From contig JANRKS010000032.1 of the NCBI GenBank assembly GCA_033763315.1, forward strand, positions 64,001-128,000: 64,000 nt of DNA. Reading direction: 5' to 3'. Under the pieces are notes generated by a model. That model saw nothing but the letters and a program-made list of their open reading frames with translations, was not told the origin of the DNA and did no database searches. Positions 46,378-63,130 of the stretch are shown here, piece by piece (positions within the stretch are counted from its first letter, which is position 1; every line of letters begins with the position of its first letter). The DNA comes from Deltaproteobacteria bacterium (GTDB lineage: Bacteria > Myxococcota_A > Polyangia > Fen-1088). The position numbers were made by a program, and so were the translations under genes.

Positions 46378-46415
46378 GTTGTGCGATCCGTAAGTGAGAG
46401 CGTTGGGCGATGGGT

Positions 46416-48254
46416 TTACTGGAACACGCGCTGCCGGAACTCAGGGTTCATCACGATGGCCCGCCAACCCTTTCGTAGTCCGCCACTGGACGCGAACGCG
46501 GTGCGGATGGATTCGAGCGCACAGCCATCACGCTCTTCGTCTTCGGGGCGCGCCAAAGTGAACCTCAAAGCTTTTCGCGCCAAACATGCGGGAACCTTTC
46601 CGCTGGCCGCCATAGCTTCAGCCAGTTGTGGTAACCCCGCCACCTCATCTGTCTCGTCTTCGACCACATAAGGCGTTGCCCGTGTGTCGATCGCTGTCGT
46701 TGCCAGCGTCTTGCCGGTTTCGAGATCCAAAACCACTTCGTTCGACCGGCTACGCGCCAAAGCGTCGAAGTTTTCGGTCGCAAACCCAAGGCCATTGATC
46801 AGGAACTTGTGACAACCGGCGCACGCGGGAGGGGAAGTCAAAGTCTCAATCTGCTGGCGGATGCTCAGCGTTTTATCAACCTTGTCGGCCCCGTCGCCCG
46901 CGTTGGCAGGCGGAGCAGCAATGACGTCGCACAACAGCTCCCTGCGGATAAATACACCCTTTACAATGGGTCGCGTCTTCGGGGTCCCGCTCGTGAGATG
47001 AAAGGCGAGCCCGAGCAGCCCGATCCGGTTCTCGGGCAACATAACGGGTTCGCCGGATCCTCCCCAGGTGCTGGTTCCGTAGATTTTGGCGAGCGCTGCA
47101 TCTTTAACGAACGAACGCCGGGTCGTCAGCAGATCCGTGGCGCTTCCACCGTTGCGGAACACGTCTGAGACGACATCAACGGCATCTGTGGCGAGGGCTT
47201 CGGCATAGCTTGAAGAAGGAAGATCGCCACCAGCCATCGTTTTGAAGGCGACGTTCTTGTCGAGGCCATTGAACGTGGGCAGTTCATCAAGACGCAGCCA
47301 CTCGTATGTAAATAGGTCGAACGTTTGTTGTGCGCGTGCATCGCCCAGCAGTCGATCCACTTGCTGGGCGTAGCCGGCAGTGGTGAGGATCTGGCCCGAT
47401 TTGGCAGCAGCCCACAGCTCATTGTCGGGAATCGTTTCCCACAGGTGCAGGGAAAGCGCGGAGGCCAATTCAAAGGCACTGAGTTGCCGAATGTTGTTGT
47501 CGCCACCCACTGGATCGGTTCCGTGTTCGACGAACGCGAGAAAGTAGGGCGACAAAATCATTGCGCCGACCACATCAGCCACGCCCGCGGGATCGAATGG
47601 ATCTGTGGCTGCATGAATTGTGCGGAACCGAGCCACCTCCTCGGCGCTTAACGAATGTCGCAACACTCGTTCACCAAACGACGTGATAAAGGCGTCGAGG
47701 CAGGCCGAGTCGTTTTTTGCGTCGCCATCGGTGGCGCAAGCGCCCATAACACTGCCGCGGTTCTCGGGCCGTGCCAGTTCTGCGCCGAGGTTTCTCGCGA
47801 GCCCGTAAAGGACGTCGATCTGACCTTGCTGTGTGGCCTGATCCAGCCGCGTGAAACTGCCGTGCACGTCAATGGGCGTAGGCGGCCGCAGGTCTTTGGG
47901 GATGCTGTCGAGATCGGGGGCGATGGCCTTGATCGCTGTGTTGGCCGCGGCTTCGTTCTTGATCGCCAAACGCAGGAGATCGCGCACGCTGTTGCGCAGC
48001 TGACGCGTGGTTAACTTCTTCAGCACGGCCGGCGGCGGCGAGCTTTGACCACAGGCGAAGCTCACGGCGTTGCCGCCCTGCGAGCCGGTGGAACTTCCTC
48101 CGGGGCCAAACGGGTTCTCCGAATTCCCGCCGGATCCCCCTTCGTCTTGGTTGGCGGCGTCTGGGTGAATTTGACCTGTGCACGCGCCCACCCCAGACGC
48201 CAGAAAGAGGATGCACAGCAACCAGACGCGGCCGAACTTCGCTTGAAACTTCAT
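46416..48254 (-). CDS. DUF1592/DUF1588/DUF1595 (PSD-family) lipoprotein with CxxCH motif
   Basis: VGAC lipobox, LKKLT..QL.NS.RDL, ELAS.LS..LW...PD..L, CAGCH and ENFDA motifs. Confidence 0.88.
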   Translation of the reverse strand: MKFQAKFGRVWLLCILFLASGVGACTGQIHPDAANQDEGGSGGNSENPFGPGGSSTGSQGGNAVSFACGQSSPPPAVLKKLTTRQLRNSVRDLLRLAIKNEAAANTAIKAIAPDLDSIPKDLRPPTPIDVHGSFTRLDQATQQGQIDVLYGLARNLGAELARPENRGSVMGACATDGDAKNDSACLDAFITSFGERVLRHSLSAEEVARFRTIHAATDPFDPAGVADVVGAMILSPYFLAFVEHGTDPVGGDNNIRQLSAFELASALSLHLWETIPDNELWAAAKSGQILTTAGYAQQVDRLLGDARAQQTFDLFTYEWLRLDELPTFNGLDKNVAFKTMAGGDLPSSSYAEALATDAVDVVSDVFRNGGSATDLLTTRRSFVKDAALAKIYGTSTWGGSGEPVMLPENRIGLLGLAFHLTSGTPKTRPIVKGVFIRRELLCDVIAAPPANAGDGADKVDKTLSIRQQIETLTSPPACAGCHKFLINGLGFATENFDALARSRSNEVVLDLETGKTLATTAIDTRATPYVVEDETDEVAGLPQLAEAMAASGKVPACLARKALRFTLARPEDEERDGCALESIRTAFASSGGLRKGWRAIVMNPEFRQRVFQ

Positions 48255-48463
48255 GGCGATTCCTCTGGGACAAGGCTTGCGAGAGCACGGCGCAGCGGCC
48301 GTACATCTCGAGTTTCAAGTTGTCACACCCCAAAACACCGCGCCCTTGCCGAGCGTTAATCCTTGGCTTAGCCACGTGCTTTGTTCGTGCGCTGCACTTC
48401 GTCCTCAACAAACCTTAACGATCATGAGTTTTGGCTGTCAGTCCGACGCTTCATACCCAAGGG

Positions 48464-49282
48464 GTGAAGAACGCTTTGTGGGCCGTGACTGTTTTGTGCT
48501 GTGCCAGCGCTTCGTGTGCTCCCGTGCCACGTGAGGAATGGGCGTCTATGGGGGGCGAGTCGATCCCAGGGCAGGGCGGCCAGGCCGGCGGCACGCAGCG
48601 TCCTGATGGCGCGGTTGTGCGAATGGACGCAGGCACCACGCCCCCTGATGGTCCTTCATCGACGCCAGCTGATGCGGCGCCGATTGGCGATCAGACGGAC
48701 ACACGCCCTGACGGCAAGACTTCACCTGACGCCAAGGCGGTCAAGGATGCGTCTTTACCTATTGATGCGCCGGCAGAACCTATGACGCCACTGTTGACGG
48801 CGTGGGGATTCGAAACCTCAACGCATCTGTGGATGGACTATGGCAGTCGGCTTGGAGCAAACGATACGCCGAGGATGCCTGTCACGATCTCGAAAGAGCA
48901 GAGCCATCAGGGTGCGTCGTCGCTCAAGTACACGATCTCGACGAGGGGAGGCGATGATCAACGTTACGTCGCGATCAAAGATCCGCGGTTGCCGCTTCAC
49001 ATGTTCAGCACGGCTGTGGTGAATATGTGGGTGCCTGCCGATCACAAGTTGCGACTGGTTCAAGTATTCGTGGAGGGCCAAACGATCCCTTGGCTTTCCG
49101 TCAACAACTTCATGAACGAGACCGGCCTGGTTGCGGGTGGCTGGAGCAAGTTCACGTTGCCCATACCCGAGGCATACAAAGACAAAAGCAATAAGGTGGC
49201 CGCGTTAGGAATCGAGTTCTGGACCGATGGCCCCTGGACGGGCTCCGTGTTCATCGACGACGTGCTGTTGCAAGGTGAATGA
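48464..49282 (+). CDS. Hypothetical lipoprotein with low-complexity linker and CBM-like jelly-roll domain
   Basis: ASC lipobox, DA/DG-rich linker, WGFE...G..SLK...W....LGIEF...VFIDDV. Confidence 0.7.
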   Translation: MKNALWAVTVLCCASASCAPVPREEWASMGGESIPGQGGQAGGTQRPDGAVVRMDAGTTPPDGPSSTPADAAPIGDQTDTRPDGKTSPDAKAVKDASLPIDAPAEPMTPLLTAWGFETSTHLWMDYGSRLGANDTPRMPVTISKEQSHQGASSLKYTISTRGGDDQRYVAIKDPRLPLHMFSTAVVNMWVPADHKLRLVQVFVEGQTIPWLSVNNFMNETGLVAGGWSKFTLPIPEAYKDKSNKVAALGIEFWTDGPWTGSVFIDDVLLQGE

Positions 49283-49351: not shown

Positions 49352-51040
49352 TTACCCGGCAACAATTTCCACATCATCGAACCAAACGCCATAGACCGCG
49401 GCGGTTGGAACCGAGAGCTTAATCGTGGCGCTGGTAGAGTTGGCACCCGTGATGAACGTACGGCTCACCTGGGTCCAGCTGCCTCTCGTTGAGGTTGACG
49501 ACGAGACGGTCGAACCGCCGTAGCCGCTGACCTCGATGGCACCCGAGCCACCGCTTGGAGAGTTGACGTAGACCCAGACCCGAGCCCGATAGACGCTGTT
49601 GGGTTTGAGGCCCGATACGGTTTGGGTCAACGACTGGCCTGCGTTCAAGTCATGGCCAAAATCGCCCGACTTGGCCGCGTAGGCGCTGGGGACCTGACTC
49701 GTGATGCCGGCTGTGGTCCAACCGCTAAACGTGCCGGTCTCGAAGCCTGCGTTCGCAACGGCCACGCCGCCTGAATCACGCTCAAGCTTCACGTCGTCGA
49801 ACCAAACCCATAGGCCGCCTGGCATCGAGGGGGCCGTGAACTTTACGGTCACGGAGTTGGCACCTGCACCCGTGGTGAACGTTTGCGACACCTTCACCCA
49901 GCTGCGCCGCGTGCTTGTGGAGGCGTTCAACGCTGCGCCGCCAAAGCCGCTCACTTCGATTTTGAAGGAACCGCTGCCGGTGTTGTGGTAGTCGTCCACA
50001 AAGGCCCATGCCGACGCGGTGTAGCTGGTGCCCGGCGACAAGCCCGTGATTGTTTGTGCAAAAGAATCCGAGGTTGACGTTAATACAGCACCATTGGCGC
50101 CAGAGTTCGCCGACCAGTTGGTGGTGGAAGCGTTGCCCGTGCGGGTCCAGCTGTTGACGCCGCTCTCAAAACCAGCGTTGATGAAGTTTGGCGCGGGCGT
50201 CACATAGGTTGAAAGCACGCGCGTGAACTTGGCACCGGTGGGGCCGCAGCCCACCACATCGAAATGGCTGGGGTTCGTGGGGTTGGCCTTGATGTCGGCG
50301 CACTCGGTCATGTCACCCACGCCCACGCGACCGCGGTAATTCGTGTAGGGCGCGCCGTTTTGTCCTGAGCCAATGCGGCCAGCGATGGAAGCCGAAAGCC
50401 CTTGCTCGTAAACGAAATTCGCCACGGGTGGGTTGGCCGTCATGATGTTGCCGAAGAACGCACCTTCGCGCTGCGTTTGTGGCTGGCCCACTTCCCACGC
50501 CTCGCCCAGCCCGATTTGCGGTTGCAGTGCAGGATCAGCCACCAACCAAATGGGCACTTGCACACCCGTGGTGTTCACGTGTGCCATCATGCAGGCCGAA
50601 ACCCATTCTTGGCAGTTGGTGTCGCAAGCGCCGTTCTTCCAGCCGGTGCCCAATCCAAGCGCGCCATGGAAGCGGTAGGACACGCCGTTTTGATCTTGCT
50701 TGTCCAGGTAGTCACCTGCCGCCAAGGCGCATTTGACCAAGTACTGCACGGTCATGCGACCGCCGTTGGAGGTCATGAGACCGTTAGAAGTCATCAGACC
50801 ATTCGACGTCATCAAGCCATTGATGGTCGAAAGACCATTGGAGGTCATCAAGCCATTGGAGGCCATCAGACCGTTGATGGTGGACAGACCGTTAATGGTG
50901 GACAGGCCGTTTTGGCCCAGGATGGTCTGCGATGACGATGGATCACCATCAAGCAGCATGTGACCATCACCTGCGGCGCCACATCCCGCCGACATCCCCG
51001 CAGCCAACAGCCCTAGCGCTCCCCATTGCTTCCAACTCAT
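49352..51040 (-). CDS. Lipoprotein with NGL hexapeptide repeats, a myxobacterial Cys domain and two CBM4/9-like domains
   Basis: SAGC lipobox, 8x NGL[SM][TA][IS], YLVKCAL...CQEWVSACMMAHVN...EGAFFGN, and two NAGFE...W.DDV modules. Confidence 0.82.
   Translation of the reverse strand: MSWKQWGALGLLAAGMSAGCGAAGDGHMLLDGDPSSSQTILGQNGLSTINGLSTINGLMASNGLMTSNGLSTINGLMTSNGLMTSNGLMTSNGGRMTVQYLVKCALAAGDYLDKQDQNGVSYRFHGALGLGTGWKNGACDTNCQEWVSACMMAHVNTTGVQVPIWLVADPALQPQIGLGEAWEVGQPQTQREGAFFGNIMTANPPVANFVYEQGLSASIAGRIGSGQNGAPYTNYRGRVGVGDMTECADIKANPTNPSHFDVVGCGPTGAKFTRVLSTYVTPAPNFINAGFESGVNSWTRTGNASTTNWSANSGANGAVLTSTSDSFAQTITGLSPGTSYTASAWAFVDDYHNTGSGSFKIEVSGFGGAALNASTSTRRSWVKVSQTFTTGAGANSVTVKFTAPSMPGGLWVWFDDVKLERDSGGVAVANAGFETGTFSGWTTAGITSQVPSAYAAKSGDFGHDLNAGQSLTQTVSGLKPNSVYRARVWVYVNSPSGGSGAIEVSGYGGSTVSSSTSTRGSWTQVSRTFITGANSTSATIKLSVPTAAVYGVWFDDVEIVAG
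50768..50911 (-). repeat. 8 x 18-bp coding tandem repeat (NGLSTI/NGLMTS)
   Basis: Read directly from the sequence. Synonymous positions differ between copies. Confidence 0.9.
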
Positions 51041-51160
51041 GAACGTTCTCCTTCGGCAGCCCGGCCAACTTCGCAGGGCGAAGTCCCGGTGGCTTTGCGA
51101 CACGCGGTCACCCGCGCTGTGCCTTTTCGTGGAAGCCCTATTGCTTCCGCGGGGAATTAC

Positions 51161-51357: not shown

Positions 51358-52728
51358 TTAGCTTAGACGACGCGCTTCTAGCTCGACGTGAATGACGGCC
51401 AACTGCGTGGCGCTCAAAGAATACAGCCGCACCATGATGGCGGCGCACAGCGCGAGGGCGGCCGGTATCAATGTGGCCAACACCAAGATGCCGGACATCG
51501 CGCGCGGTGTTTGCGCCGTGTTGGCGACGTATCCAAACGCCGATAACAGCCAACCCGTCAGCGCCTGGGCAACGCCTGCGCCGGCTTTGATCGAGAAGGT
51601 GGCGGCGGCGAAAACCAACGCTGTGGCTCGCCGCCCTGTCTTCCATTCCGAAAAGTCGGCGCTGTCTGCAAACATGGACCATGACAATGGCGACTTGGGA
51701 CCAACGACAAAAGACGTGAGCGTGTTGAGGACGAACAGCAGCGCGATGGATTGCGGTGGCACGAAGTACATGGCAGCCGACAAGGCCGCCACCAAAGCCA
51801 TCAATCCGCAGAACAAATCCTTCTTCGTAAAAAAGCGGGTCAACAGCGGGGTACACATCGCGCCGGCCAAATAGGCCAGGCTTGAGGCCGTGTTGAACCA
51901 GCTCACCAGATCTTCGCGCTTGCAGTAGTACTTAAGGTAGTACACGCCCACGCCATTGCGGATGGCCACAGCCAAAATGACCACCAACCCCAGTCCCAAC
52001 AAGGTAAGCCACGGCCCGTTCGACACGAGATCACCTAGATCCTGTCGCATGGAGCTGCGTTGGTGCGGCGGCGGCTGTACCCGCTCGCGCGTGGACGCGA
52101 ACGCGATGAAAAGCATTGCGACCGCAATTGCACCGTAGAGCACCATGAGCCTCTGCCAGCCAACCCGGAGGTCGCCGTTGGCCAATCGGTTCACGAGCGG
52201 CAGCGTCACCCATGTGACAACGGTTCCCGCGGCGTTCGAGCCAACAATCATGAAGGTCGCCAGCACCGTGCGCTTCTGCGGATCCGGCGTGATGACGCCC
52301 AGCAGGGCTCCATAGGGAATGTTAGCCGCCGTATATGCCAGCATCGTCATTGTGTAAGTGACATAGGCCCACACCAACTTGTCCGCTTGATCGAGGTGAG
52401 GCGTGGTGAAAGTCAAGACCGCAGACGCGACCAGCGGCAGCGCAAACCACAACAAATAAGGTCTGAACTTGCCCCAACGTGTGTTTGTGCGATCCGCCAG
52501 CATCCCCATCACGGGATCTAAGGCAGCGTCAAGCACCCGCGTGATCAGAAACATGGTGCCCGCTTGCGCGGGGGAGATGCCGAACGAATCCGTATAGAAC
52601 ACCAGAAGGTAGAACTCGAACACCTTCCAGTAAAATGAGAAACCGAAGTCGCCAGCCGCAAATCCGAAGAATTCAGGCCAACGCAAAGGCTTGTTTGAAC
52701 AGAACGCGCGCGAACCTCGTGACGTCAT
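51358..52728 (-). CDS. Glycoside-pentoside-hexuronide (GPH) cation symporter, MFS
   Basis: GFAAGD, FYTD, DP.MG..ADRTNTRWGKFRPYLLW, NIPYGAL and EWKTGRR motifs. Confidence 0.93.
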   Translation of the reverse strand: MTSRGSRAFCSNKPLRWPEFFGFAAGDFGFSFYWKVFEFYLLVFYTDSFGISPAQAGTMFLITRVLDAALDPVMGMLADRTNTRWGKFRPYLLWFALPLVASAVLTFTTPHLDQADKLVWAYVTYTMTMLAYTAANIPYGALLGVITPDPQKRTVLATFMIVGSNAAGTVVTWVTLPLVNRLANGDLRVGWQRLMVLYGAIAVAMLFIAFASTRERVQPPPHQRSSMRQDLGDLVSNGPWLTLLGLGLVVILAVAIRNGVGVYYLKYYCKREDLVSWFNTASSLAYLAGAMCTPLLTRFFTKKDLFCGLMALVAALSAAMYFVPPQSIALLFVLNTLTSFVVGPKSPLSWSMFADSADFSEWKTGRRATALVFAAATFSIKAGAGVAQALTGWLLSAFGYVANTAQTPRAMSGILVLATLIPAALALCAAIMVRLYSLSATQLAVIHVELEARRLS

Positions 52729-52785: not shown

Positions 52786-54090
52786 TTAGCAATCGAGCGT
52801 GACCTGTCGCTCCCACACTGAAATGTGAGCGTTGTGCTCGTTCCACTCTTGTTCTTTAAGCTTGATGAAGGCATCCACGAACTCCGACCCCAGTTTTTTT
52901 GTCAGGCGCGGATTGGCCCTAAGAGCGCGCAACGCATCCAAAAGGTTGGCCGGCAACCGGCGAGCCACCGTGGGCGGCAGGGGGTCGGTGTACATGTTGT
53001 TGTCGCGCCGAGGCCCAGGGCTGAGCTCCTGCTCAACGCCATCAATGCCGGCAGCGATGATCCCTGCTTGCAACAGATACGGATTCGCCGCGCCGTCAGC
53101 CAGCCGCAGCTCAAATCTATCGTTGTCGGGAATGCGGACCATGTGCGTGCGGTTGTTGCCCGCGTAGCTGATAACATTCGGTGCCCACGTGGCGCCCGAG
53201 CTTGTGACAGGCGCGTTGATGCGCTTGTACGAGTTCACCGTCGAGTTGGTCAACGCGCAAAGCGCCTCAGCGTTTGCCAATACGCCGCCCAAGAATTGAT
53301 AAGCAAGCCCTGATAGGCCCAGCTCTCCTCGTGGATCGTGAAACAGATTGCGATCCGCGTCCACATCCCATGCCGACACATGGACATGGCACCCATTACC
53401 CGCAGCTTTGGCGAATGGCTTGGGCATAAACGTCGCCCGCAAACCTTGCTGTTCGGCCAACGTCTTGACCATGTATTTGAAAAAGGCATGTCGATCAGCG
53501 GTGACCAGAGCGTCGCTGTAGGTCCAGTTCATCTCGAATTGACCGTTGCCGTCTTCGTGATCACTTTGATACGGATCCCATCCCAGCTTCTGCATGGCAT
53601 CGCTCACCTGGGTGACAAGGTCGAACCTGCGCATCAGGGATTGCTGATCGTAGCAAGGCTTTCGTTGTCGATCGCTTGCATCGCAAGGTTCATTGCCATC
53701 GGCCGATAGCACGAAGAATTCACACTCCACGCCCGTGCGTATGGCGAGGCCCAGCTCCTTGGCCCGCGTGAGTTGACGCTTAAGTACGACGCGCGGGGTC
53801 TGTTCAACCGCGTGGCCATTCATGGTGAGATCCGCGGCGAGCCAAGCCACCTCTGGCTTCCACGGCAACTGAATCAGACTCTGTGAGTCCCCAACCGCAA
53901 ACATGTCGGCATCGGCAGGTGTCATGTCCAGCCACGTGGCGAACCCCGCGAACCCGGCCGCGCCTGAAGCCATTTTGTTGATGTGCGATGCTGGCACCAA
54001 TTTGGCCCGCTGCACGCCTAGAAGATCTGTGAACGACAGCATGAAATAGCGAATGCCGCGGTCCTGGGCGATGTCGAAAAGCGTTGTCAC
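52786..54090 (-). CDS. glnT: Type III glutamate-ammonia ligase family (GlnT / gamma-glutamylmethylamide synthetase-like)
   Basis: QRAKLVP, GFAGFATWLD, GVECEFF, KPCYDQ, DHEDGNGQFEMNW, SGATWAP, GNNRTHMVR and ELRLADG motifs. Confidence 0.9.
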   Translation of the reverse strand: MTTLFDIAQDRGIRYFMLSFTDLLGVQRAKLVPASHINKMASGAAGFAGFATWLDMTPADADMFAVGDSQSLIQLPWKPEVAWLAADLTMNGHAVEQTPRVVLKRQLTRAKELGLAIRTGVECEFFVLSADGNEPCDASDRQRKPCYDQQSLMRRFDLVTQVSDAMQKLGWDPYQSDHEDGNGQFEMNWTYSDALVTADRHAFFKYMVKTLAEQQGLRATFMPKPFAKAAGNGCHVHVSAWDVDADRNLFHDPRGELGLSGLAYQFLGGVLANAEALCALTNSTVNSYKRINAPVTSSGATWAPNVISYAGNNRTHMVRIPDNDRFELRLADGAANPYLLQAGIIAAGIDGVEQELSPGPRRDNNMYTDPLPPTVARRLPANLLDALRALRANPRLTKKLGSEFVDAFIKLKEQEWNEHNAHISVWERQVTLDC

Positions 54091-55106
54091 GTGCGCGCTC
54101 CTTTGGCTGGACGCTCAAGCAGGTTGTGAACGGCCTCGCGAAGGAAGGCTTCGTCGGCTGGGTTTTGAAAAGGATTCCCTGCGCGGTGACCCCAAATGGA
54201 GGGAATGGGCAGGTATGTTGAGCCGCGAATCATGTCAGCTTCGGCGCGGCAGTCCTCGGGCGTAAAGTAAAGGTCGGTGGCGCTGGGCATGATCAGGGCG
54301 CGTGCGGTAATGGCTTTCAAGGCTTGCCTGAGATCGCCGTTAAACTCGGGGTACTCGGCGACATCGCAACACATCCACGTGCGGAGCATGCAAAGCAGGT
54401 TCATGGGATCGCGCCGCAGGTATTGTTCCTCCCACGCACGCTTCACGTAATCATCGAGACTCACGTAACCGAGGCTTTCGTATAGCCGTTCGCGATAGAA
54501 AGCTTGTGACGCCGCCCAGCTTGCGTAGATGAAAGCAAAGGTGCGGATGCCGTGCCTGGGAACGTCGTTGAACCGCGTGCCATCCCATGCCGGGTCGGAT
54601 TGCAATGCCGCCTCCAAGCTGCGAAGAAACAGCGTGTTGTGTGGGGTGGTTTGGGCGGTGCCGCAAATGGCCGCGAAGCGTTCCACCATGTGTGGCCGTT
54701 TGACGGCCCAGTAGTAGGCTTGTTGGGCGCCCATCGACCACCCGTACACCAGTTTCAATGATTGCACGCCGAGCCCCTGCGTAAGCAGCGTTTCTTGTGC
54801 CCGCAAGTTGTCGTCGTGGGTAAACGTGATACCCGGATCTAAGCCGTGGCTTGGTGAACTTGAAAGGCCGTTGCCAAACATGTTGGCGATGACAACGAAC
54901 CACTTTTCGGAGTCTAAGATCCCGCCGGGCCTCACAAGCCAGTCGATGTCGCTGTGGTGCGCGCCATACGACGTGGGGTACAAAATCACGTTCGAGCGGT
55001 CTTCGGCCAGTTTGCCGTACGTCTTGTATACGAGTTTGGCGTTGGCCAGGCGCCCACCGCGTGTCAAACGAAACCGACCGAGCTCCAGCACATGACCCTC
55101 ACTCAC
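54087..55106 (-). CDS. Homoserine-acetyltransferase (MetX)-like alpha/beta hydrolase
   Basis: YKTYG.L, NMFGNGLSSSPS, GWSMG nucleophile, TDLYF and WGH. GTGA overlaps at both ends. Confidence 0.88.
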   Translation of the reverse strand: MSEGHVLELGRFRLTRGGRLANAKLVYKTYGKLAEDRSNVILYPTSYGAHHSDIDWLVRPGGILDSEKWFVVIANMFGNGLSSSPSHGLDPGITFTHDDNLRAQETLLTQGLGVQSLKLVYGWSMGAQQAYYWAVKRPHMVERFAAICGTAQTTPHNTLFLRSLEAALQSDPAWDGTRFNDVPRHGIRTFAFIYASWAASQAFYRERLYESLGYVSLDDYVKRAWEEQYLRRDPMNLLCMLRTWMCCDVAEYPEFNGDLRQALKAITARALIMPSATDLYFTPEDCRAEADMIRGSTYLPIPSIWGHRAGNPFQNPADEAFLREAVHNLLERPAKGART

Positions 55107-56098
55107 GCGGAACGCCTCCCAGACCAGTGGCGGAAGAAGCCTAGGTGCAGCGCGAGATAGCCATTCTTTCCGACGTGTGCCAGCTGCGGCTCCAGTTTTT
55201 GGTTGGCTTGTGCCAAGCGATGAAACGGTAGCGCTGGATAGCGATGATGCTCGGCGTGATACGGCATGTTCCACATCAAAAACCGCACGAGCCAATTGGT
55301 GTGTGTGGTGCGTGTATTGGTCAAAGCGTTGTCGTCGTTTGTGCACAAGGTGTGCTCGGCCAACACCAAGCCACGCAAAAGCGGCTGTGCCAATGCCACG
55401 GGCAGCAGCCAATAGAACAAGAACCACGGCTGCCATGCGGCCAGCGACACGGCGATGGCGGTGGCGTACAGAAAACATTGCGCACGCACGGAACGCATCA
55501 CCTGGCGCTGCGTCTTTGCATTCAAATACGGGTAGTCTTGGGCGCGCCCCGAACAAATTTTTGCGTAGGTGCGAATTTTGCCAACCCACCAGTGAAATCC
55601 ACTCATCTCGATGACGTAACTCGGTAGATTCGTCGGCTTTGGATCGTCAAGCTCGGGATCTTTGCCAGGGATCTGCGTGAATCTGTGGTGCCATCCATGG
55701 TAGTGCCGGTAGAACGTGCCGTTGTAAAACGACATCAGACCAGCGAACCATGCCACGCAATTGTTGAGCCATGCAGATTTGAAAGCGGTGCGATGGACGG
55801 TCTCGTGCATCATCGCGAACATGGTGACCAACGTGAAGCCGTAGAACACCATCGCGAGGCTGATCCAAAGCGCGTTTTGCTGGGTGTTGACGGCGGCGTA
55901 AACGAGCCACGCACTTACCCCCGCGAACACCAAGTGTCCTGCCAAATGAAGCAGGCCCTTGGCGTCTGAGCGCTGTTGCATGGCCTTAAGTTCGTCGGCC
56001 GGTAACGCTTGCTTCGAAGCAGGTACGGATTGTCGCCGGTCATCGTCGTGCGCTTGCGCTGTTACGCATAGGTCTCTTTGCACTTGCTTTGTCACCAC
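55103..56098 (-). CDS. Membrane non-heme diiron desaturase/oxygenase, MocD (rhizopine oxygenase)-like
   Basis: His boxes HETVH, HGWHH, EH and YHAEHH; RSD..GL, RTAF and DPEL motifs. Start uncertain (GTG at 56098, 56095 or 56083). Confidence 0.85.
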   Translation of the reverse strand: MVTKQVQRDLCVTAQAHDDDRRQSVPASKQALPADELKAMQQRSDAKGLLHLAGHLVFAGVSAWLVYAAVNTQQNALWISLAMVFYGFTLVTMFAMMHETVHRTAFKSAWLNNCVAWFAGLMSFYNGTFYRHYHGWHHRFTQIPGKDPELDDPKPTNLPSYVIEMSGFHWWVGKIRTYAKICSGRAQDYPYLNAKTQRQVMRSVRAQCFLYATAIAVSLAAWQPWFLFYWLLPVALAQPLLRGLVLAEHTLCTNDDNALTNTRTTHTNWLVRFLMWNMPYHAEHHRYPALPFHRLAQANQKLEPQLAHVGKNGYLALHLGFFRHWSGRRSA

Positions 56099-56309: not shown

Positions 56310-57798
56310 ATGATGGCTCAACGTTTGTGGGTGGTGCTGCTCGTATTGGTCGCCTGTGCCGGGGCGTCCGAACCACGAGAATACGAAGAGTCAGGTGGCA
56401 GTGGTGGCAACGTTGATGACGAACCCTCAGACAATGGTGGCGGTGGCGGGGCAGAGAAGCCGGCGTCACCGGACAAGAACGATGCTCGCGACGCCGTGGT
56501 TGCCAGCGACGGCGCTCAGGACGCATCAACATCGACAGATAGGGATGGCAGCCGCGTGGCTGAAGATTTCGATTGGCACGGGATCATCGGCACAGGCCAA
56601 AGCTTGTCTGTGGGGGCCGAAGGCGCTCCGCCAATTCTGACGTCACAGCCCTATGCCAACTTGAAGTTGGCGCTCGATCCGTCAGTTCAAGGCCCTCCGT
56701 TCGATGCCACCAATCCCATGCTTTCGGTGGTGTCTCTGGTGGAGCCGATTCGCCCGTTAGCAAGGGCCTATCCAGGCTTTTATCCCCACAACATCTACGG
56801 CGAGTCGCCGCACACAGCGATGGCAAATCAAATGTCTGCGATGGCTGCAGCGGCAGGCAAGGGTGATTTCGTCAGCGTTCACACGGTGGTAGGTGAAGCG
56901 GGACAAGGAATCAAAGCGTTGAGCAAGGACGCCGTCTTCAAAGATCGAGTGGGTGCCGCTTATGCTGCCAGCTTGTTTGAGGTGAAGGCGTTCACGCGTC
57001 TCGCGAACGCCAAGGGTAAACGTTATGGCGTCACGGCGATCGTCTTGACCCACGGCGAAACGGATTGGACGAATCCAACCTACGAACAAGCTTTACTGAA
57101 GCTATGGCGCGACTATAACGCAGATCTCCCGGCGATTACGGGCCAGACAGCCAAGATCCCTGTGGTCCTCACGCAGCAGCAAGGCCTACCTACGAATTTG
57201 AGCACACGCCCCTTGTCGACGCTGGTGATGTGGCGGTTGTGTCAGCAGCATCCCGGTGATTTCATCTGCGTGGGCCCCAAGTACCAATACTCATACGCGT
57301 CTGATCGCCTTCATTTGACGAACGCTCAGTACGACCGGCTGGGGGAAAAGTATGGACAGGTGATCTTCAAGGTGGCGGCGTTGCATGAGTCCTGGAAGCC
57401 GTTGCAGCCCGAAACGGTGACCCAGCAAGACAACATGATTCGCGCGAACTTCTTTGTGCCCGTGCCGCCCTTGGCGTGGGACACCGATATCTCGCCGCCT
57501 CATCAAACGGTGCTGGTGGAGTGGAGGAATGGTCGCGGCTTCGAGGTGGAAGACGGCCAAGGCCGCGTGCAAATCGTCAGCGCTACGTTTGGGGGCCACG
57601 TTCGTTGACCTTGTGTTGGGGCGTAAGCCCGTGGGCAAGACGACGCTTCGGTACGCGCAAAGCGCTGACGGCATCAAACCATCAAGTCCAAACTCAGATT
57701 GCCGCGGCCAACTCCGAGACTCTGATCCCTTCGTGGGCAGAACCGCTGGCAAAAGGCATCAGAACTACGCCATCGGCTTCGAGATGACCCTGCCTTGA
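56310..57798 (+). CDS. SGNH/SASA (CE6-like) carbohydrate esterase lipoprotein, apparently frameshifted near 57588-57595
   Basis: GQSLSVG, HGETD and DRLH catalytic blocks. The ORF stops at 57608, but a protein-like tail (GQLRDSDPFVG...NYAIGFEMTLP) continues in another frame to 57798. Confidence 0.7.
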
Positions 57799-57827: not shown

Positions 57828-58811
57828 CTAGTCGCAGCCGATGCGCTTTGAGTCGACGGCGATGTCATCCATATAGAACGTGAAGTCTTTGTCGACTGTG
57901 GCCGCGGCAATCTGGAAGCCGAACGCAGCCGTTAGTACCCTTTCATACTTTTGCCAACAAGCGTCGCCTGCAACCGCCCCCCGCATCCCCATGGATTTCC
58001 CATCGATCCATGCATCGAACCCAGTGGCGTCGGCGCGGATCTCAACGCAGGTCCATTTCTGTGCGGGCAACGTGGCCCCATCGGCGGCGCAGTCCTTCTT
58101 GGTTGATTCTTTGATGTAAAGCATGCGCCCGCCGTTTGCGCCAACGATGCCCGCGGACGCCGTGGCTCCCACCAAGGCGGCGTCCTTGACCTGACCGAAC
58201 AAGCGCGCCAAGCGATAATGCGGTTGTTCGCCAGAACGGCTTACCGCAGGCAATTCGGGAAAGTACATCCAGGCACGCGCGTAAACAGTCTTACCACCGC
58301 CGGTTTTCGTATCGACGGCGGCCACCTTGAGCATGCGCGTTTCTGCGCCTTTCGAGGCCACCTTCACGGCGTTTGCGCCCGTGTGCTTTTGCTCGGAGGT
58401 CACGAGGTAATCAGCCGCCGTGCCGCCTTCGATGCTGAACGCACTGCCGGCAAGTGGCCCCGCCCCAAGGCCTTCAAAGCCGTTGCAGAACGCAAGACCG
58501 CCGCAGTCCATCGGCGTTGGCGTCCCGCCTGTGCCGGCACCACCCATACCTTGGCCGCCGCTGCCTCCTGCGGCTTGCCCCGCGCTGCCTCCTGCGGCTT
58601 GCCCGGCGCCGCCCCCTTGCGCTGTGCCACCCGTGTTGGCCGGTGCACCACCACTGGCTTTGCCCCCCGTGGCATCATCGCCTCCCGCTCCTCCCGCCAT
58701 CTCCTGGCCTGCTTGCCCTCCTGCGTTTGTGTCATCGTCTTGCTGCGCTGTGGAACACGAAACGCCCAACGCCAAAAGCACTGCAAATAAAGCGGATACG
58801 CGAAACATCAT
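57828..58811 (-). CDS. Gly-rich lipoprotein with Cip1-like/polysaccharide-lyase-like jelly-roll domain
   Basis: GVSC lipobox, Gly linker, FC.GFE...YARAWMYF...W.CVE...DDIAVDSKRIGC. Confidence 0.75.
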   Translation of the reverse strand: MMFRVSALFAVLLALGVSCSTAQQDDDTNAGGQAGQEMAGGAGGDDATGGKASGGAPANTGGTAQGGGAGQAAGGSAGQAAGGSGGQGMGGAGTGGTPTPMDCGGLAFCNGFEGLGAGPLAGSAFSIEGGTAADYLVTSEQKHTGANAVKVASKGAETRMLKVAAVDTKTGGGKTVYARAWMYFPELPAVSRSGEQPHYRLARLFGQVKDAALVGATASAGIVGANGGRMLYIKESTKKDCAADGATLPAQKWTCVEIRADATGFDAWIDGKSMGMRGAVAGDACWQKYERVLTAAFGFQIAAATVDKDFTFYMDDIAVDSKRIGCD

Positions 58812-58905
58812 GCGCTCGATCTCCCGTTGTTTGCGGTGGCGCCGCAACCGTGACGCCCAGCTTAATAGTAGGATCGACGTTCGCGTGGCCTGCCATTGCT
58901 CTGAG

Positions 58906-59814
58906 TTAAATCGCTGCACCAAGCATGGCCTTTGCCGCATACACGGCCGCACCCACCACACCGGCGCCGTCACCAAGCGCAGCAAACGCGACGCTCGGGC
59001 GGTGCGATGTAAACGAGCGGACGTTCGTGCGCGGCTGAACGCCCAAGGCTTGCAGCCCAAGCGCCAAACCGCCGCCGACCACAACGCGATCAGGTGCATA
59101 AACCAGCGCAAAGTTATGAACCACAAGCTCAAGGTCTGCGAGGTAACGCTCAATCGCCCCCGCCGCTGCGTGCGATTGGCTCTGGGCGGCGGTGAATAGG
59201 GCTTCGGGAGAGACGAATTTTCCTCGTGCATTTGTGAGCAGGCCGGCGGCGCACAGCCGCGCTTCGGCACAGCCGCTTTGGCCACAGATGCACGAGGAGG
59301 ATGCCGCGTCGTCAAGCCGCAACCTGATGTGACCCGCCATGTGTGTGCGTGGTTGCGCCTCCAAGAAACCTTGGTCGCTGACGAAGCCAACGCCCAGCCC
59401 CGTGCCCAGCGTCAGCGCCAACAAGCGGCGGTGCCCCGCGCCTGCGCCAAAGCACGCCTCGCCAAGCGCCACCAACCGCGCGTCGTTGTCGCCGAAGCAA
59501 GGCAGCCCGGTCGCAGCGTGCAACGCTTGGCACAGGTTGAAGCAGCCGGTGTCCATGAAAGGCAAAAAGCCCCATGTTGTGTCAACAACGCCGCTTTCAA
59601 TGTATCCCGGAACGCCAATGCCCAAAGCCACGAAGGTTGCTGGGGCCAAGCGCTGCTGCAGCTTTTCGATCGTCGAGCCGATCGCCAGCATGAAGGCGTG
59701 GGCGTCGTCCTTGATGGTGGGGGCTATCTCTAGTGCGGCAACTTTGCCCGATAGGGTGTCAACGGCGCCCACTTTCGTGCGTGTGCCCCCCACATCGATG
59801 CCGATGCACAACAC
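58906..59814 (-). CDS. ROK family sugar kinase
   Basis: GIDVGGT, DNDA...ALGE, LGTGLG and CICGQSGCAE. No N-terminal HTH. Confidence 0.9.
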   Translation of the reverse strand: MLCIGIDVGGTRTKVGAVDTLSGKVAALEIAPTIKDDAHAFMLAIGSTIEKLQQRLAPATFVALGIGVPGYIESGVVDTTWGFLPFMDTGCFNLCQALHAATGLPCFGDNDARLVALGEACFGAGAGHRRLLALTLGTGLGVGFVSDQGFLEAQPRTHMAGHIRLRLDDAASSSCICGQSGCAEARLCAAGLLTNARGKFVSPEALFTAAQSQSHAAAGAIERYLADLELVVHNFALVYAPDRVVVGGGLALGLQALGVQPRTNVRSFTSHRPSVAFAALGDGAGVVGAAVYAAKAMLGAAI

Positions 59815-60887
59815 TATGTCACCAGCCAGTTGAGGTGGCGCATCGTTCCGGCCTCATGGCCCCGGCGTGCCGCAAGAGCGAACGTCAGTAGCTGCACGGA
59901 GGGCGCCGCGACCAGTGGCTTGAACGCTGACGGAAGGCCACGCAAAGGCAGCCCCAGCAAAGGCGCTCCATAAGTTGACCGAGCGTTGTCGCTGATGATC
60001 AACGTCTGCGGCGCATTTTTGCGGATCTTCTCCACGTGGCGTCGGGTGGCGTCGTTGGGCTCGAGATCAATGATCACGCCGGCGAAAGCTTCATCCACGA
60101 CTTCAAGCGGCCCGTGTGCGAAGCCATTGAGGCTGTGGCTCGCCGCGGGCAACCACACCCCTTCTTCGATCAACAGCGCCCCTAGTCCCGCGGTCACAGC
60201 GCCATAGCCGGCACCGATGAAATAAACGCTGCGAGGATCCGCGTGGCGCGGCCAATCGCTCAGGTGATCGAGCCACGCTGGCATGCAGGAAGCCATCAAC
60301 CCAAAGGCGTCGTGCAACGCGCCTCTATGAGCGTCCAGTTCTTCGCGGCTTGTCACCAACAGAAGTGCCGCCAACATCAACGCTGTATGGGCCTTGACGC
60401 AGATCAAGCCATCAAACGGTGCTGGCACATGCACCACGACATCAGCGTGAAGCGCTAACGTGCTGTTCGGTGTCATGGTGATCGCAATGAGAGTGCCACC
60501 ACGGCCTTGGCACAATTGGGCAAAGTCAGCGATCTCGCCGCTTTGACCTGAACGTGACAGAACCACATAAACCGTTTGATCGCAAAATGGACTTTCGTTG
60601 AGCAAGGCGCTTGTCTCAACCAGAGCCACATTTGGGTGCAAGCGGGCCGCCGCCATGAACGCAGGCATGGCTGAAAGGTAGGCGCTGCCCATGCCGGTAA
60701 ACACCACCCGACGTGCCTGTTGTACCAGGTTCGCGGCGGCAAGAACGGCTTGTTGTCCTGGCCCATCCAAGTGTGCCAGCGTCTGGGCCAACGCTTCTGG
60801 TTGCGCCAAGATATCCTGCAGATACCGCGTCACTTGCGACGTTTCGCCGCGCGCGATGAACGCCTGCGTCTTTTGCAAATCAATCAT
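59814..60887 (-). CDS. Double-SIS-domain sugar-phosphate isomerase/deaminase (GlmD/AgaS/FrlB-like)
   Basis: DI..QP..L, GMGS, SRSGQS, EEG and HGP motifs. No glutaminase domain. Confidence 0.88.
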   Translation of the reverse strand: MIDLQKTQAFIARGETSQVTRYLQDILAQPEALAQTLAHLDGPGQQAVLAAANLVQQARRVVFTGMGSAYLSAMPAFMAAARLHPNVALVETSALLNESPFCDQTVYVVLSRSGQSGEIADFAQLCQGRGGTLIAITMTPNSTLALHADVVVHVPAPFDGLICVKAHTALMLAALLLVTSREELDAHRGALHDAFGLMASCMPAWLDHLSDWPRHADPRSVYFIGAGYGAVTAGLGALLIEEGVWLPAASHSLNGFAHGPLEVVDEAFAGVIIDLEPNDATRRHVEKIRKNAPQTLIISDNARSTYGAPLLGLPLRGLPSAFKPLVAAPSVQLLTFALAARRGHEAGTMRHLNWLVT

Positions 60888-63130
60888 TTCGTCTCCGCTG
60901 GTGTGGATAAGATGAAGGCGCGCGCCGTGCGTGCGCCCAGTTCTACGAACACGGTGTTGCCCTCCACGGGCAAGGCATTGCCGGAACTGTGATCAACCGC
61001 CGCCGTGAAGCTCAGCCCAGCAAGGGCGACGTTCACGGCGACAGCGGTGCTTTCACAGTTTATGACTACAAGCACGCTTTCGTCTTGGCCACGCAACAGC
61101 CTCGTGTCGATGGCGCGGTCGCCACGTTGTTGCACAACCACAACCGGCTGAACTTGCGCCAGTGTGGCGAAGTCGCAGAGCAGCCGCGCAAAGCCATCGT
61201 CGGCGAAATCGCTTAAGCGTCCGGGCAAGCTGCCAAAATAGAGCGTCCGGCCTTTGCCAAATCGATTGGCGACCACAACGGCCTCATCAGACGCGTTTTG
61301 AGCGATCACCGTCGCTGTGGACTGTGGGCTCAGCACCTCCTCGAACTTATGGCCGTGCAGCTTTTGGCCAGGCACAAGCTGGGCGTTGGGGTGAAGTGCG
61401 TTGGTCACACGCAAAGCCGGGCGGCCCGTCATCTGCACCTGATAGGCCGAGCCCAGCGTGCTTGTGGATGCGTCGTGCTCGGAGAAGCAGGGGCGCACCA
61501 AGCTCTCTTCGCACCCGAATACATGATGCAAGCCCAACCCTGGAACGATGGGTTCGCCGAAACCGTTCTCGTCTTTCATTGCCAAAAACAGCCCGGCGAC
61601 CAAGTGACCTCCGTCGTTCACGTAGCGCTTGAGGGCCGCAGCGACGTTATCAGCCATGGCGTATCCGAAAGGAACACAGGCCACTTGATACTTTGTGAGC
61701 GCACCCGCCGCGGCCGCGGCCTCTGAGACAAAATCCACCGCGAACCCCTGGCTGCGCCAAGCCGCATAGAAGTCGCGTTGGGCATTCACGACCTCGGCGT
61801 CGCTGCCCTCGCCCGCGGCGACGATACGAGCTCGCACGTTGTCAACGATGGCAATGCGCGCGGCCACAGGTTTGCAGCGCGCCAAGGGCCCCTCGGCCAC
61901 GCTTGCGGCCACAGCTCCCACTCGCTTGGCGCGTGCGGTGGGGCGGCCGGCGCGATCGCTGAGTCCATGGCCACCCACCTCAACGCCTCCCATGTGTGGC
62001 CGCCAGTTCCAATACTGAACGCACGTGGCGCCGTTGCCTAGCACCTGCCACGTAAAGCGTTCGATGTCGTCGGCGTCAAGCGGCACGCCCCAGTTGGTGA
62101 TGCCCCACGTGGTTTGCCCCGCGCGCAATTCCCACAACCACAGTGGCTTGCCGGCCGCCGCAGAACGATGTCGATCCATGAGCCAGTTGGTGCTCATGTA
62201 ATCGCCGGCAACGTCACTTGTGAACATGCTCACGCCCAGCGCATCAACGAGCGGCGCGATCGCCCACAGATCCTGCGACCAAAACGCCGGGTCGACCTGA
62301 TGAGTGTGATCGACGATCGGTGTTGTGTCGTCGAGGGCGCGTACAACTTCAATCTTGAACCTCATCCAATCCGTGTACAGGTCACACATGTACAAACGGT
62401 GATCCAGCCACTCGACTTGGTTGTGAAGCATGGCTGGATCGCGGTGGTATCGGGCCCGTGGTGGCTGCACTTCGTCGAACGATCGGAAGTGCGCGCGCCA
62501 CATGCGGTTCAGCTCGGCAATGAATTTGTATTTGCCCCGAAGCCACGCGCGGAAGCCGTCATTGGCAGCTTCGTTGTAATCCCAAAGCCGATCGTCTTGG
62601 TTGGTTGTGTCCGGCTTTTGATTCCACCACAGGCCACCCTCGATGGAAATGTTGTAACCAAGGTTGTGAGGGTGACGACGATAACGGCTCACGGCCGCGT
62701 CCAAGAATCGCTGCGCGTAGGCACGGAAGATCGGGTGCGCTGGGCTTGCAGAACGAGTCACATAGCCGCTCGCTGCCACAGCCAAGGCTTCTGGGTGCTT
62801 CTTCACGAACCAAGGTGGCGTGAGCTCAGGCCATAACCACACGAAGTGGTCCATCGACAAGTCGTCACATACTTGACGTACAGTGTCCGGCGCTGAGAAG
62901 TCGTATTCGCCGGGCGCGACTTCGATGTCTGACCACGTGCAGTTGAAGCTTACGCTATCAAGGCCACATTCCTTCATGTGACCGATCTCGCGGCGCATGA
63001 AATCCGCGAACGCTTGCCCATCGAGTGGCGGAGACTGTTTGCGGAATGTTGCGTGGTGAAGCGCGCCGAACGGAATGTGTTTGGGAAACAGCACTTCCCT
63101 TAAATACGAGGCACGAAGCCGGCTGCGCAC
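60884..63130 (-). CDS. GH42-like glycoside hydrolase (beta-galactosidase family) with trimerisation domain
   Basis: WSDIE..PGEYDF, PPWF...HPE, FRAWL..KY..I.ELN..W, nucleophile WELRAG and GG.LV. Confidence 0.85.
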   Translation of the reverse strand: MRSRLRASYLREVLFPKHIPFGALHHATFRKQSPPLDGQAFADFMRREIGHMKECGLDSVSFNCTWSDIEVAPGEYDFSAPDTVRQVCDDLSMDHFVWLWPELTPPWFVKKHPEALAVAASGYVTRSASPAHPIFRAYAQRFLDAAVSRYRRHPHNLGYNISIEGGLWWNQKPDTTNQDDRLWDYNEAANDGFRAWLRGKYKFIAELNRMWRAHFRSFDEVQPPRARYHRDPAMLHNQVEWLDHRLYMCDLYTDWMRFKIEVVRALDDTTPIVDHTHQVDPAFWSQDLWAIAPLVDALGVSMFTSDVAGDYMSTNWLMDRHRSAAAGKPLWLWELRAGQTTWGITNWGVPLDADDIERFTWQVLGNGATCVQYWNWRPHMGGVEVGGHGLSDRAGRPTARAKRVGAVAASVAEGPLARCKPVAARIAIVDNVRARIVAAGEGSDAEVVNAQRDFYAAWRSQGFAVDFVSEAAAAAGALTKYQVACVPFGYAMADNVAAALKRYVNDGGHLVAGLFLAMKDENGFGEPIVPGLGLHHVFGCEESLVRPCFSEHDASTSTLGSAYQVQMTGRPALRVTNALHPNAQLVPGQKLHGHKFEEVLSPQSTATVIAQNASDEAVVVANRFGKGRTLYFGSLPGRLSDFADDGFARLLCDFATLAQVQPVVVVQQRGDRAIDTRLLRGQDESVLVVINCESTAVAVNVALAGLSFTAAVDHSSGNALPVEGNTVFVELGARTARAFILSTPAETK

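Follow-up and report, generated by a model that had tools for sequence, protein, structure and literature searches.

The canonical aerobic route for methylated amines, as set out in the available part of PMC13390433, comprises Tmm, Tdm, Dmm, GmaS, Mgs and Mgd, and ends in the N-methylglutamate pathway of GmaS, MgsABC and MgdABCD. In the aniline and naphthylamine systems described in PMC11335346, a glutamine synthetase (GS)-like ligase takes the first step, and the oxygenase does not accept the amine in its free form. Here we analyse three minus-strand genes at positions 52786-56098 of a 64,000-nucleotide stretch of DNA (the window; contig JANRKS010000032.1, positions 64,001 to 128,000) from a Deltaproteobacteria bacterium of the Polyangia, which encode a membrane diiron oxygenase, a serine hydrolase and a glutamate-amine ligase. 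Together they make up a conserved, self-contained cassette, which is found again in cyanobacteria and other bacteria. Two points are well supported: the GmaS-clade ligase is co-inherited with the diiron oxygenase and the MekB-type hydrolase, and the context of the cassette is one of methylated amines and nitrogen limitation, in which the N-methylglutamate pathway is missing. We tentatively propose, at somewhat less than even confidence, that the trio is a self-contained module which draws nitrogen from monomethylamine, or from a small alkylamine much like it, and replaces the N-methylglutamate pathway.

With that pathway the cassette shares the first enzyme: its ligase belongs to TIGR03105 and keeps the same functional residues, and in some cyanobacteria its gene follows those for Tmm and Tdm, an arrangement that the marine pathway has too (PMC13390433 and PMC7948447). 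In contrast, MgsABC was not found in 11 cassette genomes, where a membrane diiron oxygenase and a serine hydrolase accompany the ligase instead. The aniline and 1-naphthylamine systems (AtdA1/NpaA1, a Rieske dioxygenase and a glutamine-amidotransferase-like hydrolase; PMC11335346, in part) are alike in combining a GS-like ligase, an oxygenase and a hydrolase. However, the cassette has a membrane FA_desaturase-type diiron enzyme in place of the Rieske oxygenase, an alpha/beta-fold MekB-type hydrolase in place of the amidotransferase-like one, and a ligase of the GmaS rather than the GoaS clade. The isopropylamine (Ipu) pathway also depends on gamma-glutamylation for the oxygenation of its amine; compared with this group of systems, the cassette oxygenase is neither a Rieske nor a P450 enzyme.

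Results

The three proteins of the cassette

The ligase (52786-54090, minus strand, 434 amino acids; TIGR03105, 'GlnT / type III') scores 662.3 bits against the TIGR03105 family model, for which the cut-off is 469.6, as well as 578.8 bits against Rhodovulum GmaS (PDB 7cql) and 364 bits against a second glutamate-methylamine ligase structure. According to the available part of PMC7948447, mutagenesis and structure of RhGmaS single out Lys30, Ala48, Tyr147, Gln175, Asp177, Glu179, Glu186, Asn188, Trp300 and Arg312, among which Trp300 and Ala48 stand in place of the ammonium residues of GS. All 18 functional residues of RhGmaS are present in the window ligase, the counterparts of those just named being K30, A48, Y147, Q175, D177, E179, E186, N188, W302 and R314; they were mapped by hand on a pairwise alignment and then by script over 50 sequences, throughout which they are conserved. 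Since Ala48 and Trp302 occupy the places that the ammonium-binding Asp and the Glu-flap Glu have in true GS, the window protein is not a plain glutamine synthetase.

In a quick tree, the trio ligases form a sister clade (support 92) to the mgs-linked GmaS clade (99), with a joint support of 97, and the window ligase groups with two sequences from metagenome-assembled genomes (MAGs) of Myxococcales (98). The family score and the residues bear out the GmaS-type ligase that a preliminary description of this DNA had named. A TIGR03105 paralog in an operon with Fe-alcohol dehydrogenase (Fe-ADH) and aldehyde dehydrogenase (ALDH) genes was observed at L052:6695-10708, L053:6959-10953 and L054:6565-10869; in L053 and L054 this operon is divergent from an Amt transporter, near Tdm and PhyH, and GTAN8TAC boxes are located in the intergenic region between operon and transporter.

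By its sequence and its modelled fold, the hydrolase (54087-55106, minus strand, 339 amino acids) is a serine hydrolase of the PRK07581/MekB type ('homoserine-transacetylase-like esterase' subfamily) and not MetX. It passes the model NF005757 (PRK07581) with 440.7 bits at a cut-off of 332, but fails every MetX model, with 95.1 bits for TIGR01392 (cut-off 500), 101.7 for NF001209 (331) and 72.6 for NF047916 (560), or 65-102 bits overall against cut-offs of 331-560. The catalytic triad Ser124 (in the motif GWSMG), Asp278 and His307 is invariant in 36 sequences. The structure model, with a predicted local distance difference test (pLDDT) score of 91.9, resembles most closely the acetyl esterase MekB (5efz/5e4y; template modelling (TM) score 0.93-0.94, 34% identity), followed by the C. 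glutamicum acetylester hydrolase (5d6o; TM 0.90), which together span 32-34% identity and have the same Ser-Asp-His triad. MetX and CefG are alike in fold, and MetX in triad too, but reach only TM 0.81-0.86 at 19-22% identity. An assignment as homoserine O-acetyltransferase MetX was therefore rejected, on the grounds of both the scores and the lower TM values.

MekB is a broad-specificity esterase according to the accessible part of PMC2975365. In contrast to MekB, the partner of the cassette hydrolase is a diiron oxygenase and its substrate is probably nitrogenous. MekB itself works after a Baeyer-Villiger monooxygenase, on ethyl acetate. As a separate observation, a hydrolase homolog at L044:6001-6656 matches in two pieces in different frames, with its first third gone and no oxygenase upstream, and is probably a decayed copy.

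The oxygenase (55103-56098, minus strand, 331 amino acids) is an FA_desaturase-type membrane diiron protein resembling MocD and AlkB. It matches PF00487 with an E-value of 3.8e-38 (132.1 bits, cut-off 29.7), and its best NCBIfam match, a weak one (2.8e-12), is the GntB arginine hydroxylase. Eight His residues in the motifs HX3H, HX2HH and HX2HH (H98, H102, H134, H137, H138, H281, H284 and H285) are invariant in 36 sequences, and the structure model (pLDDT 88.8) has FtAlkB among its top folds. The intact catalytic motifs noted previously for all three proteins are thus confirmed. The likeness to MocD is that of a distant homolog: a Rhizobium gene, 27% identical over 98% of the query, adjoins genes for a MocE-family ferredoxin and an FAD oxidoreductase. 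In contrast to the MocD/MocE/MocF rhizopine oxygenase, the window protein is paired with a hydrolase, and Pfam and NCBIfam scans of the operon found no MocE- or MocF-type gene. Oxygenases of the MocD type are presumed to remove a methyl group from a hydrophilic amino compound. In Ruegeria, a homolog (34% identity) has as its neighbours genes for a Rieske ferredoxin, for an amino-acid ABC transporter and for sarcosine-oxidase-like proteins, and this context, together with the GntB match, offers a precedent for members of the oxygenase family acting on hydrophilic amino compounds.

Conservation and distribution of the cassette

A hydrolase-based scan of reference genomes yielded 44 loci. Among those with at least 1 kb of flank, 26 loci come from cyanobacteria, myxobacteria and planctomycetes, and in 24 of these the oxygenase gene lies directly upstream of the hydrolase gene. 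It does so in none of the 15 loci from Alphaproteobacteria or Archangium, where the hydrolases share 49-54% identity. Of the 20 loci whose flanks are long enough, 13 have an adjacent ligase gene (59-70% identical). The flanks have no further gene family in common, and the neighbours vary from locus to locus. The trio, first noted in the window, is thus syntenic in other phyla as well; in Leptolyngbya sp. BL0902 it resides on a plasmid, between replication and partition genes.

Co-occurrence was assessed in an even sample of 201 cyanobacterial genomes, with at least 59% identity taken to define a ligase ortholog. The hydrolase is present in 10 of these genomes, one of which has only a distant version, the ligase in 9 and the oxygenase in 13. 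Each of the 9 ligase-bearing genomes also carries the hydrolase and the oxygenase, even though the ligase is unlinked in 4 of them; the Fisher P value of about 1e-14 is overstated, as related genomes are not independent. Oxygenases standing alone were located at G116:C35:34841-35701, G155:C1:1300406-1301272, G177:C70:119483-120361 and G195:C13:4037-4894 (49-53% identity).

In the lineage of the host the cassette is rare. It was found in none of 200 other sampled genomes of the phylum, in none of 150 genomes of the phylum sampled around genome G009 (G009 itself excepted), and in none of 30 relatives of the host, 2 of which belong to its genus and 16 to its family. This rarity, together with the grouping of the window ligase with the two Myxococcales MAGs, argues for a patchily distributed and probably mobile cassette.

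Absence of the N-methylglutamate pathway

The alphaproteobacterial ligases, to which the window ligase is 56-64% identical, have mgsC in their short flanks at 17 of 24 places and the hydrolase or oxygenase at none. Two wider alphaproteobacterial loci (L057 and L058) display the order regulator, mgsA, mgsB, mgsC and gmaS, and served as positive control: the same Pfam models that were applied to the cassette genomes detect MgsB and MgsC in both. As the preliminary description had it, Pfam and NCBIfam scans find no mgsABC gene in the window operon. Nor was an mgsB- or mgsC-type cluster found in the window genome, the Pfam models matching only large GOGAT frames and one stand-alone protein; this second Glu_synthase-domain gene was rejected as part of such a cluster, being a lone protein of 526 amino acids in an unrelated context. 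In ten other cassette genomes (G006-G010, G215, G032, G005, G001 and G003) the models likewise found no mgsB- or mgsC-type cluster. A weak GXGXG match in G010 was discarded, as it belongs to a protein of 362 amino acids without mgsA or mgsC neighbours. SoxG (PF04268) was tried as a marker for MgdABCD, but is silent in the control genomes too and hence uninformative.

Methylated-amine islands and predicted nitrogen control

Methylated-amine gene islands of cyanobacteria were observed at L096 (G215:C1:3668000-3686000), L097 (in G032), L002, L053 and L054. Their gene set comprises Tmm, Tdm, a conserved small open reading frame (ORF) of about 176-206 amino acids, a PhyH-family dioxygenase, SBP_bac_3, a GS-like protein of 500-518 amino acids and Amt. 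No MgsC-type gene was found in the genomes that contain them. This context comes from other genomes and lies beyond the sequence on which the preliminary description was based.

Three cyanobacterial genomes have genes of the trio inside such an island or alongside it. At L002, Tdm, a small ORF, Tmm, a GS-like gene, the oxygenase and the hydrolase follow one another on the same strand, with Tmm scoring 793.6 bits against the trimethylamine monooxygenase equivalog NF058570 (cut-off 675). In G215, a 14-kb region encodes Amt, a PhyH dioxygenase, SBP, a GS-like protein, Tmm, Tdm (composed of DUF1989 and GCV_T), a small ORF and then oxygenase, hydrolase and ligase. This Tmm/Tdm module is present in genome G032 as well, where the trio genes lie at other places. 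Of the 201 cyanobacterial genomes in the sample, 2 were found to have Tmm, and these belong to the 9 with the trio (P = 0.0018).

The proximity to Tdm could also mean that the oxygenase attacks free methylated amines, as a membrane substitute for dimethylamine monooxygenase (dimethylamine to monomethylamine and formaldehyde) or for methylamine monooxygenase, while the ligase would take up the product and the hydrolase would deal with some by-product, such as a C1 thioester. The oxygenase gene comes directly after Tdm and the small ORF in G215, Tmm and the GS-like gene stand between Tdm and the oxygenase in L002, and the oxygenase occurs alone in some genomes. Inspection of Pfam tables, with no dedicated Dmm model, showed no dmm-like four-gene set in the islands, and this dependence on table inspection counts against the argument. 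In addition, gamma-glutamylmethylamide would be left without a consumer in genomes that have only the trio, and the invariably coupled hydrolase would have no clear role. We consider action on free amines improbable.

Of the 19 cyanobacterial loci, 12 have the sequence GTAN8TAC within 400 nt upstream of the oxygenase gene, in 8 different versions, whereas its background frequency elsewhere in these loci is 0.054 per 490 nt. It is usually followed about 22 nt downstream by a TAN3T-like box. According to the available part of PMC5714215, GTAN8TAC is the consensus of NtcA, which activates from position -41.5. The cyanobacterial boxes and their spacing match NtcA activation at these predicted sites. 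Further GTAN8TAC boxes are present in intergenic promoters of the G215 island, and none precedes the oxygenase in the 7 non-cyanobacterial loci.

These data bear as well on a role in lipid remodelling, with the oxygenase as a desaturase or hydroxylase of fatty acids or aminolipids, the hydrolase as a lipase or acyltransferase and the ligase as a coincidental neighbour. The database names 'fatty acid desaturase' and 'homoserine O-acetyltransferase' and membership of PF00487 would suit such a role. It is nevertheless very improbable in view of the perfect co-occurrence with a GmaS-clade ligase in the cyanobacterial sample, the NtcA boxes in front of the oxygenase, the link to Tmm and Tdm, and hydrolase scores far below the MetX cut-offs.

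Proposed mechanism

The methylamine module that we favour would operate in three steps. In the first, which is well supported by homology, the ligase would join the amine to glutamate at the expense of ATP, yielding gamma-glutamylmethylamide (N5-methylglutamine). In the second, the membrane diiron oxygenase may hydroxylate the N-methyl group of this amide, by analogy with the attack of MocD- and AlkB-type enzymes on methyl groups, with electrons supplied by a host ferredoxin or rubredoxin encoded outside the cassette. A carbinolamide is a fairly stable compound, and in peptide amidation a hydroxylase is followed by a lyase. In the third step, the MekB-type hydrolase might be expected to resolve the oxidized carbinolamide, either by promoting the loss of formaldehyde or by removing an N-formyl group after a second oxidation, and the end products would be glutamine, or glutamate plus ammonia, together with a C1 unit. 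In cyanobacteria, the module would be under NtcA (nitrogen-limitation) control, and in some genomes it would form the end piece of an island for trimethylamine, trimethylamine N-oxide, dimethylamine and methylamine; the window genome would have acquired the trio alone.

In its most specific form, which we put forward with greater reserve, the oxygenase would be a gamma-glutamylmethylamide N-demethylase and the hydrolase an obligatory carbinolamide lyase or N-formyl-glutamine hydrolase, so that methylamine nitrogen would become the amide nitrogen of glutamine. With three genes and independently of folate, the trio would then bypass the N-methylglutamate pathway and its seven genes, and would serve an NtcA-controlled nitrogen nutrition of cyanobacteria on methylamine and, in combination with Tmm and Tdm, on trimethylamine.

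The ligase is placed first because GS-like enzymes act first in the aniline and naphthylamine systems. The preliminary description had favoured the opposite order: acting on an N- or O-alkylated amide, ester or carbamate, the oxygenase and the hydrolase would release a small amine, which the ligase would then capture in the form of a gamma-glutamylamide. Such a sequence of events would agree with the gene order oxygenase, hydrolase, ligase, which is the reverse of the reaction order proposed here, with the existence of oxygenase-hydrolase pairs that have no ligase, with esterases as the nearest solved relatives of the hydrolase, and with alphaproteobacterial hydrolase homologs that sit near nitrile hydratase, amidase or formamidase genes. 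Release before capture is less likely, however, because the cassette genomes have no consumer of a gamma-glutamylamide other than the oxygenase and hydrolase; the trapped product would be a dead end, as no N-methylglutamate synthase was found in the 11 genomes. Furthermore, the ligase was never seen without the pair in the 201 cyanobacteria, in the characterized GS-like systems the ligation comes first (PMC11335346), and in G215 and L002 Tmm and Tdm already supply free amine. Taken together, we judge this order unlikely.

Besides the gene order, several observations weigh against the proposed use of methylamine by way of a glutamylated intermediate. Hydrolase genes at two of the 26 loci (L020 and L044) have no oxygenase, and 4 of the 13 oxygenase-positive cyanobacterial genomes have neither hydrolase nor ligase. 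A plasmid of Nostoc sp. C052 (L090) carries an oxygenase of 47% identity, with no hydrolase or ligase at the thresholds used. Three MAGs with the pair possess only a ligase paralog of 49-50% identity, and the pair can therefore act on something that this ligase did not make. On plasmid pRK1-2 of Cupriavidus basilensis (L089, NZ_CP062806.1 62825-77688), hydrolase (44%) and oxygenase (36%) occur in reversed order together with Fe-ADH, an FAD oxidoreductase, rubredoxin and a TetR regulator, and no ligase is present; this locus hints at electron donors and a non-glutamylated substrate. The cassette itself encodes no electron donor for the oxygenase, and most FA_desaturase-family enzymes act on lipids. 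As regards the ligase, the tree came from a quick search with SH-aLRT support only, and four trio ligases from Planctomycetaceae MAGs are placed just outside the main trio clade. The 18 RhGmaS residues are equally invariant in a paralog of 46-49% identity (by tblastn) that is sited with Fe-ADH and ALDH genes. Lastly, the window genome has neither Tmm nor DUF1989/Tdm, its operon has no recognizable nitrogen-type promoter, and at 90.85% completeness its gene absences are no proof.

Because of their invariance in this paralog, the RhGmaS residues mark a wider family and are no proof of methylamine specificity, and they were rejected as a test for it. The same logic of glutamylation, oxygenation and hydrolysis could hence apply to a different amine of small size (ethylamine, propylamine or an amino alcohol, for instance) and would then resemble the Ipu pathway. 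Apart from the pocket residues, which do not separate the trio ligases from the ADH/ALDH-linked paralog, the Fe-ADH and ALDH genes of the Cupriavidus and cyanobacterial variants point in this direction. Yet the nearest characterized relatives of the ligase are methylamine enzymes and the cassette is linked to Tmm and Tdm, which leaves another amine only a slim chance.

Locus layout and neighbouring genes

Direct reading of the sequence confirms that the three genes are joined by GTGA stop/start overlaps (55106-55103 and 54090-54087), the first of which depends on the start chosen for the hydrolase. The public gene call has this start at GTG 55091, 15 nt later (334 amino acids), which would abolish the overlap. 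An NTGA overlap with a start codon in the hydrolase frame is, however, seen in 21 of 24 homologous oxygenase-hydrolase loci and thus supports the overlapping start in the window. The overlap between hydrolase and ligase was found only in L008 and the window among the homologous loci compared. For the oxygenase, the public call begins at ATG 55981 (Met40; 292 amino acids). As homologs align from about residue 14-30, this start would lose conserved residues, and GTG 56098, 56095 or 56083 is more likely the true one.

Upstream of the window operon, a scan for sigma-54 patterns and for sigma-70 promoters and terminators gave nothing above chance. Long open frames over oxygenase and hydrolase in L022, G009 and the window were rejected as fusions, since they represent out-of-frame read-through, and none of the 6 long hydrolase-type proteins found is fused to a desaturase or GS domain according to their listed Pfam domains. 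A predicted complex of oxygenase and hydrolase scored 0.00, which counts neither for nor against binding.

A GPH-family cation symporter (51358-52728, minus strand; TIGR00792, 409.5 bits) starts 57 nt downstream of the ligase and may be co-transcribed with the trio, but is outside the conserved cassette. No symporter homolog adjoins the cassette in the 44 reference-genome loci; in same-genus relatives the symporter is present, and the trio is not in its 1.5-kb flanks. With the window locus, the same-genus genomes share only this symporter and part of a CBM gene, at 66-72% DNA identity.

The remaining surroundings consist of genes of other types. A run of sugar genes at 57828-63130 (minus strand) encodes a GH42-like glycosidase with a weak exo-beta-D-glucosaminidase match, a SIS-domain GlmS/NagB-like protein, a ROK kinase and a Cip1-like protein. 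These genes have the appearance of an operon for the use of amino sugars or glycans, unrelated to the trio. Within the run, ORFs 57828-59390 and 58906-59814 overlap by about 485 nt, so that the former probably starts further in. On the other side, 44800-48254 and 49352-51103 hold a DUF1552 and DUF1592/1588/1595/1585 gene pair plus a CBM_4_9 protein, and the CBM gene has several DNA matches of 70-72% in same-genus genomes. A planctomycete host, which the DUF1592/DUF1588-type genes had at first suggested, was rejected: one position (C1:3141411-3142277) came up with an identical score in the phylum samples drawn around the window and around G009, so that the two share a phylum, and DUF1592-type genes are no dependable mark of planctomycetes. 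Two plus-strand genes, 56310-57608 (432 amino acids, divergent from the cassette) and 48431-49282 (283 amino acids), have no Pfam or NCBIfam match.

Discussion

To our knowledge, cyanobacteria are not known to have a nitrogen nutrition of this kind based on methylamine or trimethylamine. A literature search, with subscription journals outside its coverage, found no description of the trio, of such a cyanobacterial methylamine route or of the methylated-amine islands, and in this respect too the preliminary description, which knew of no characterized pathway with these three enzymes, is upheld. The trio probably falls within the known gamma-glutamyl-mediated use of amines, by a route not described in the literature found. 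Since the cassette is small and is carried on a plasmid of a cultured strain, the idea is directly testable.

Dissolved organic nitrogen includes a sizeable pool of methylated amines, from which climate-active gases can also arise. If the proposal is true, surveys based on gmaS would count organisms with a different downstream chemistry. A membrane desaturase-type enzyme would gain a new class of reaction, the N-demethylation of an amino-acid amide, and the MekB-type esterase a physiological role. Some cyanobacteria and other bacteria, the host of the window among them, would then be consumers of methylamine under nitrogen limitation.

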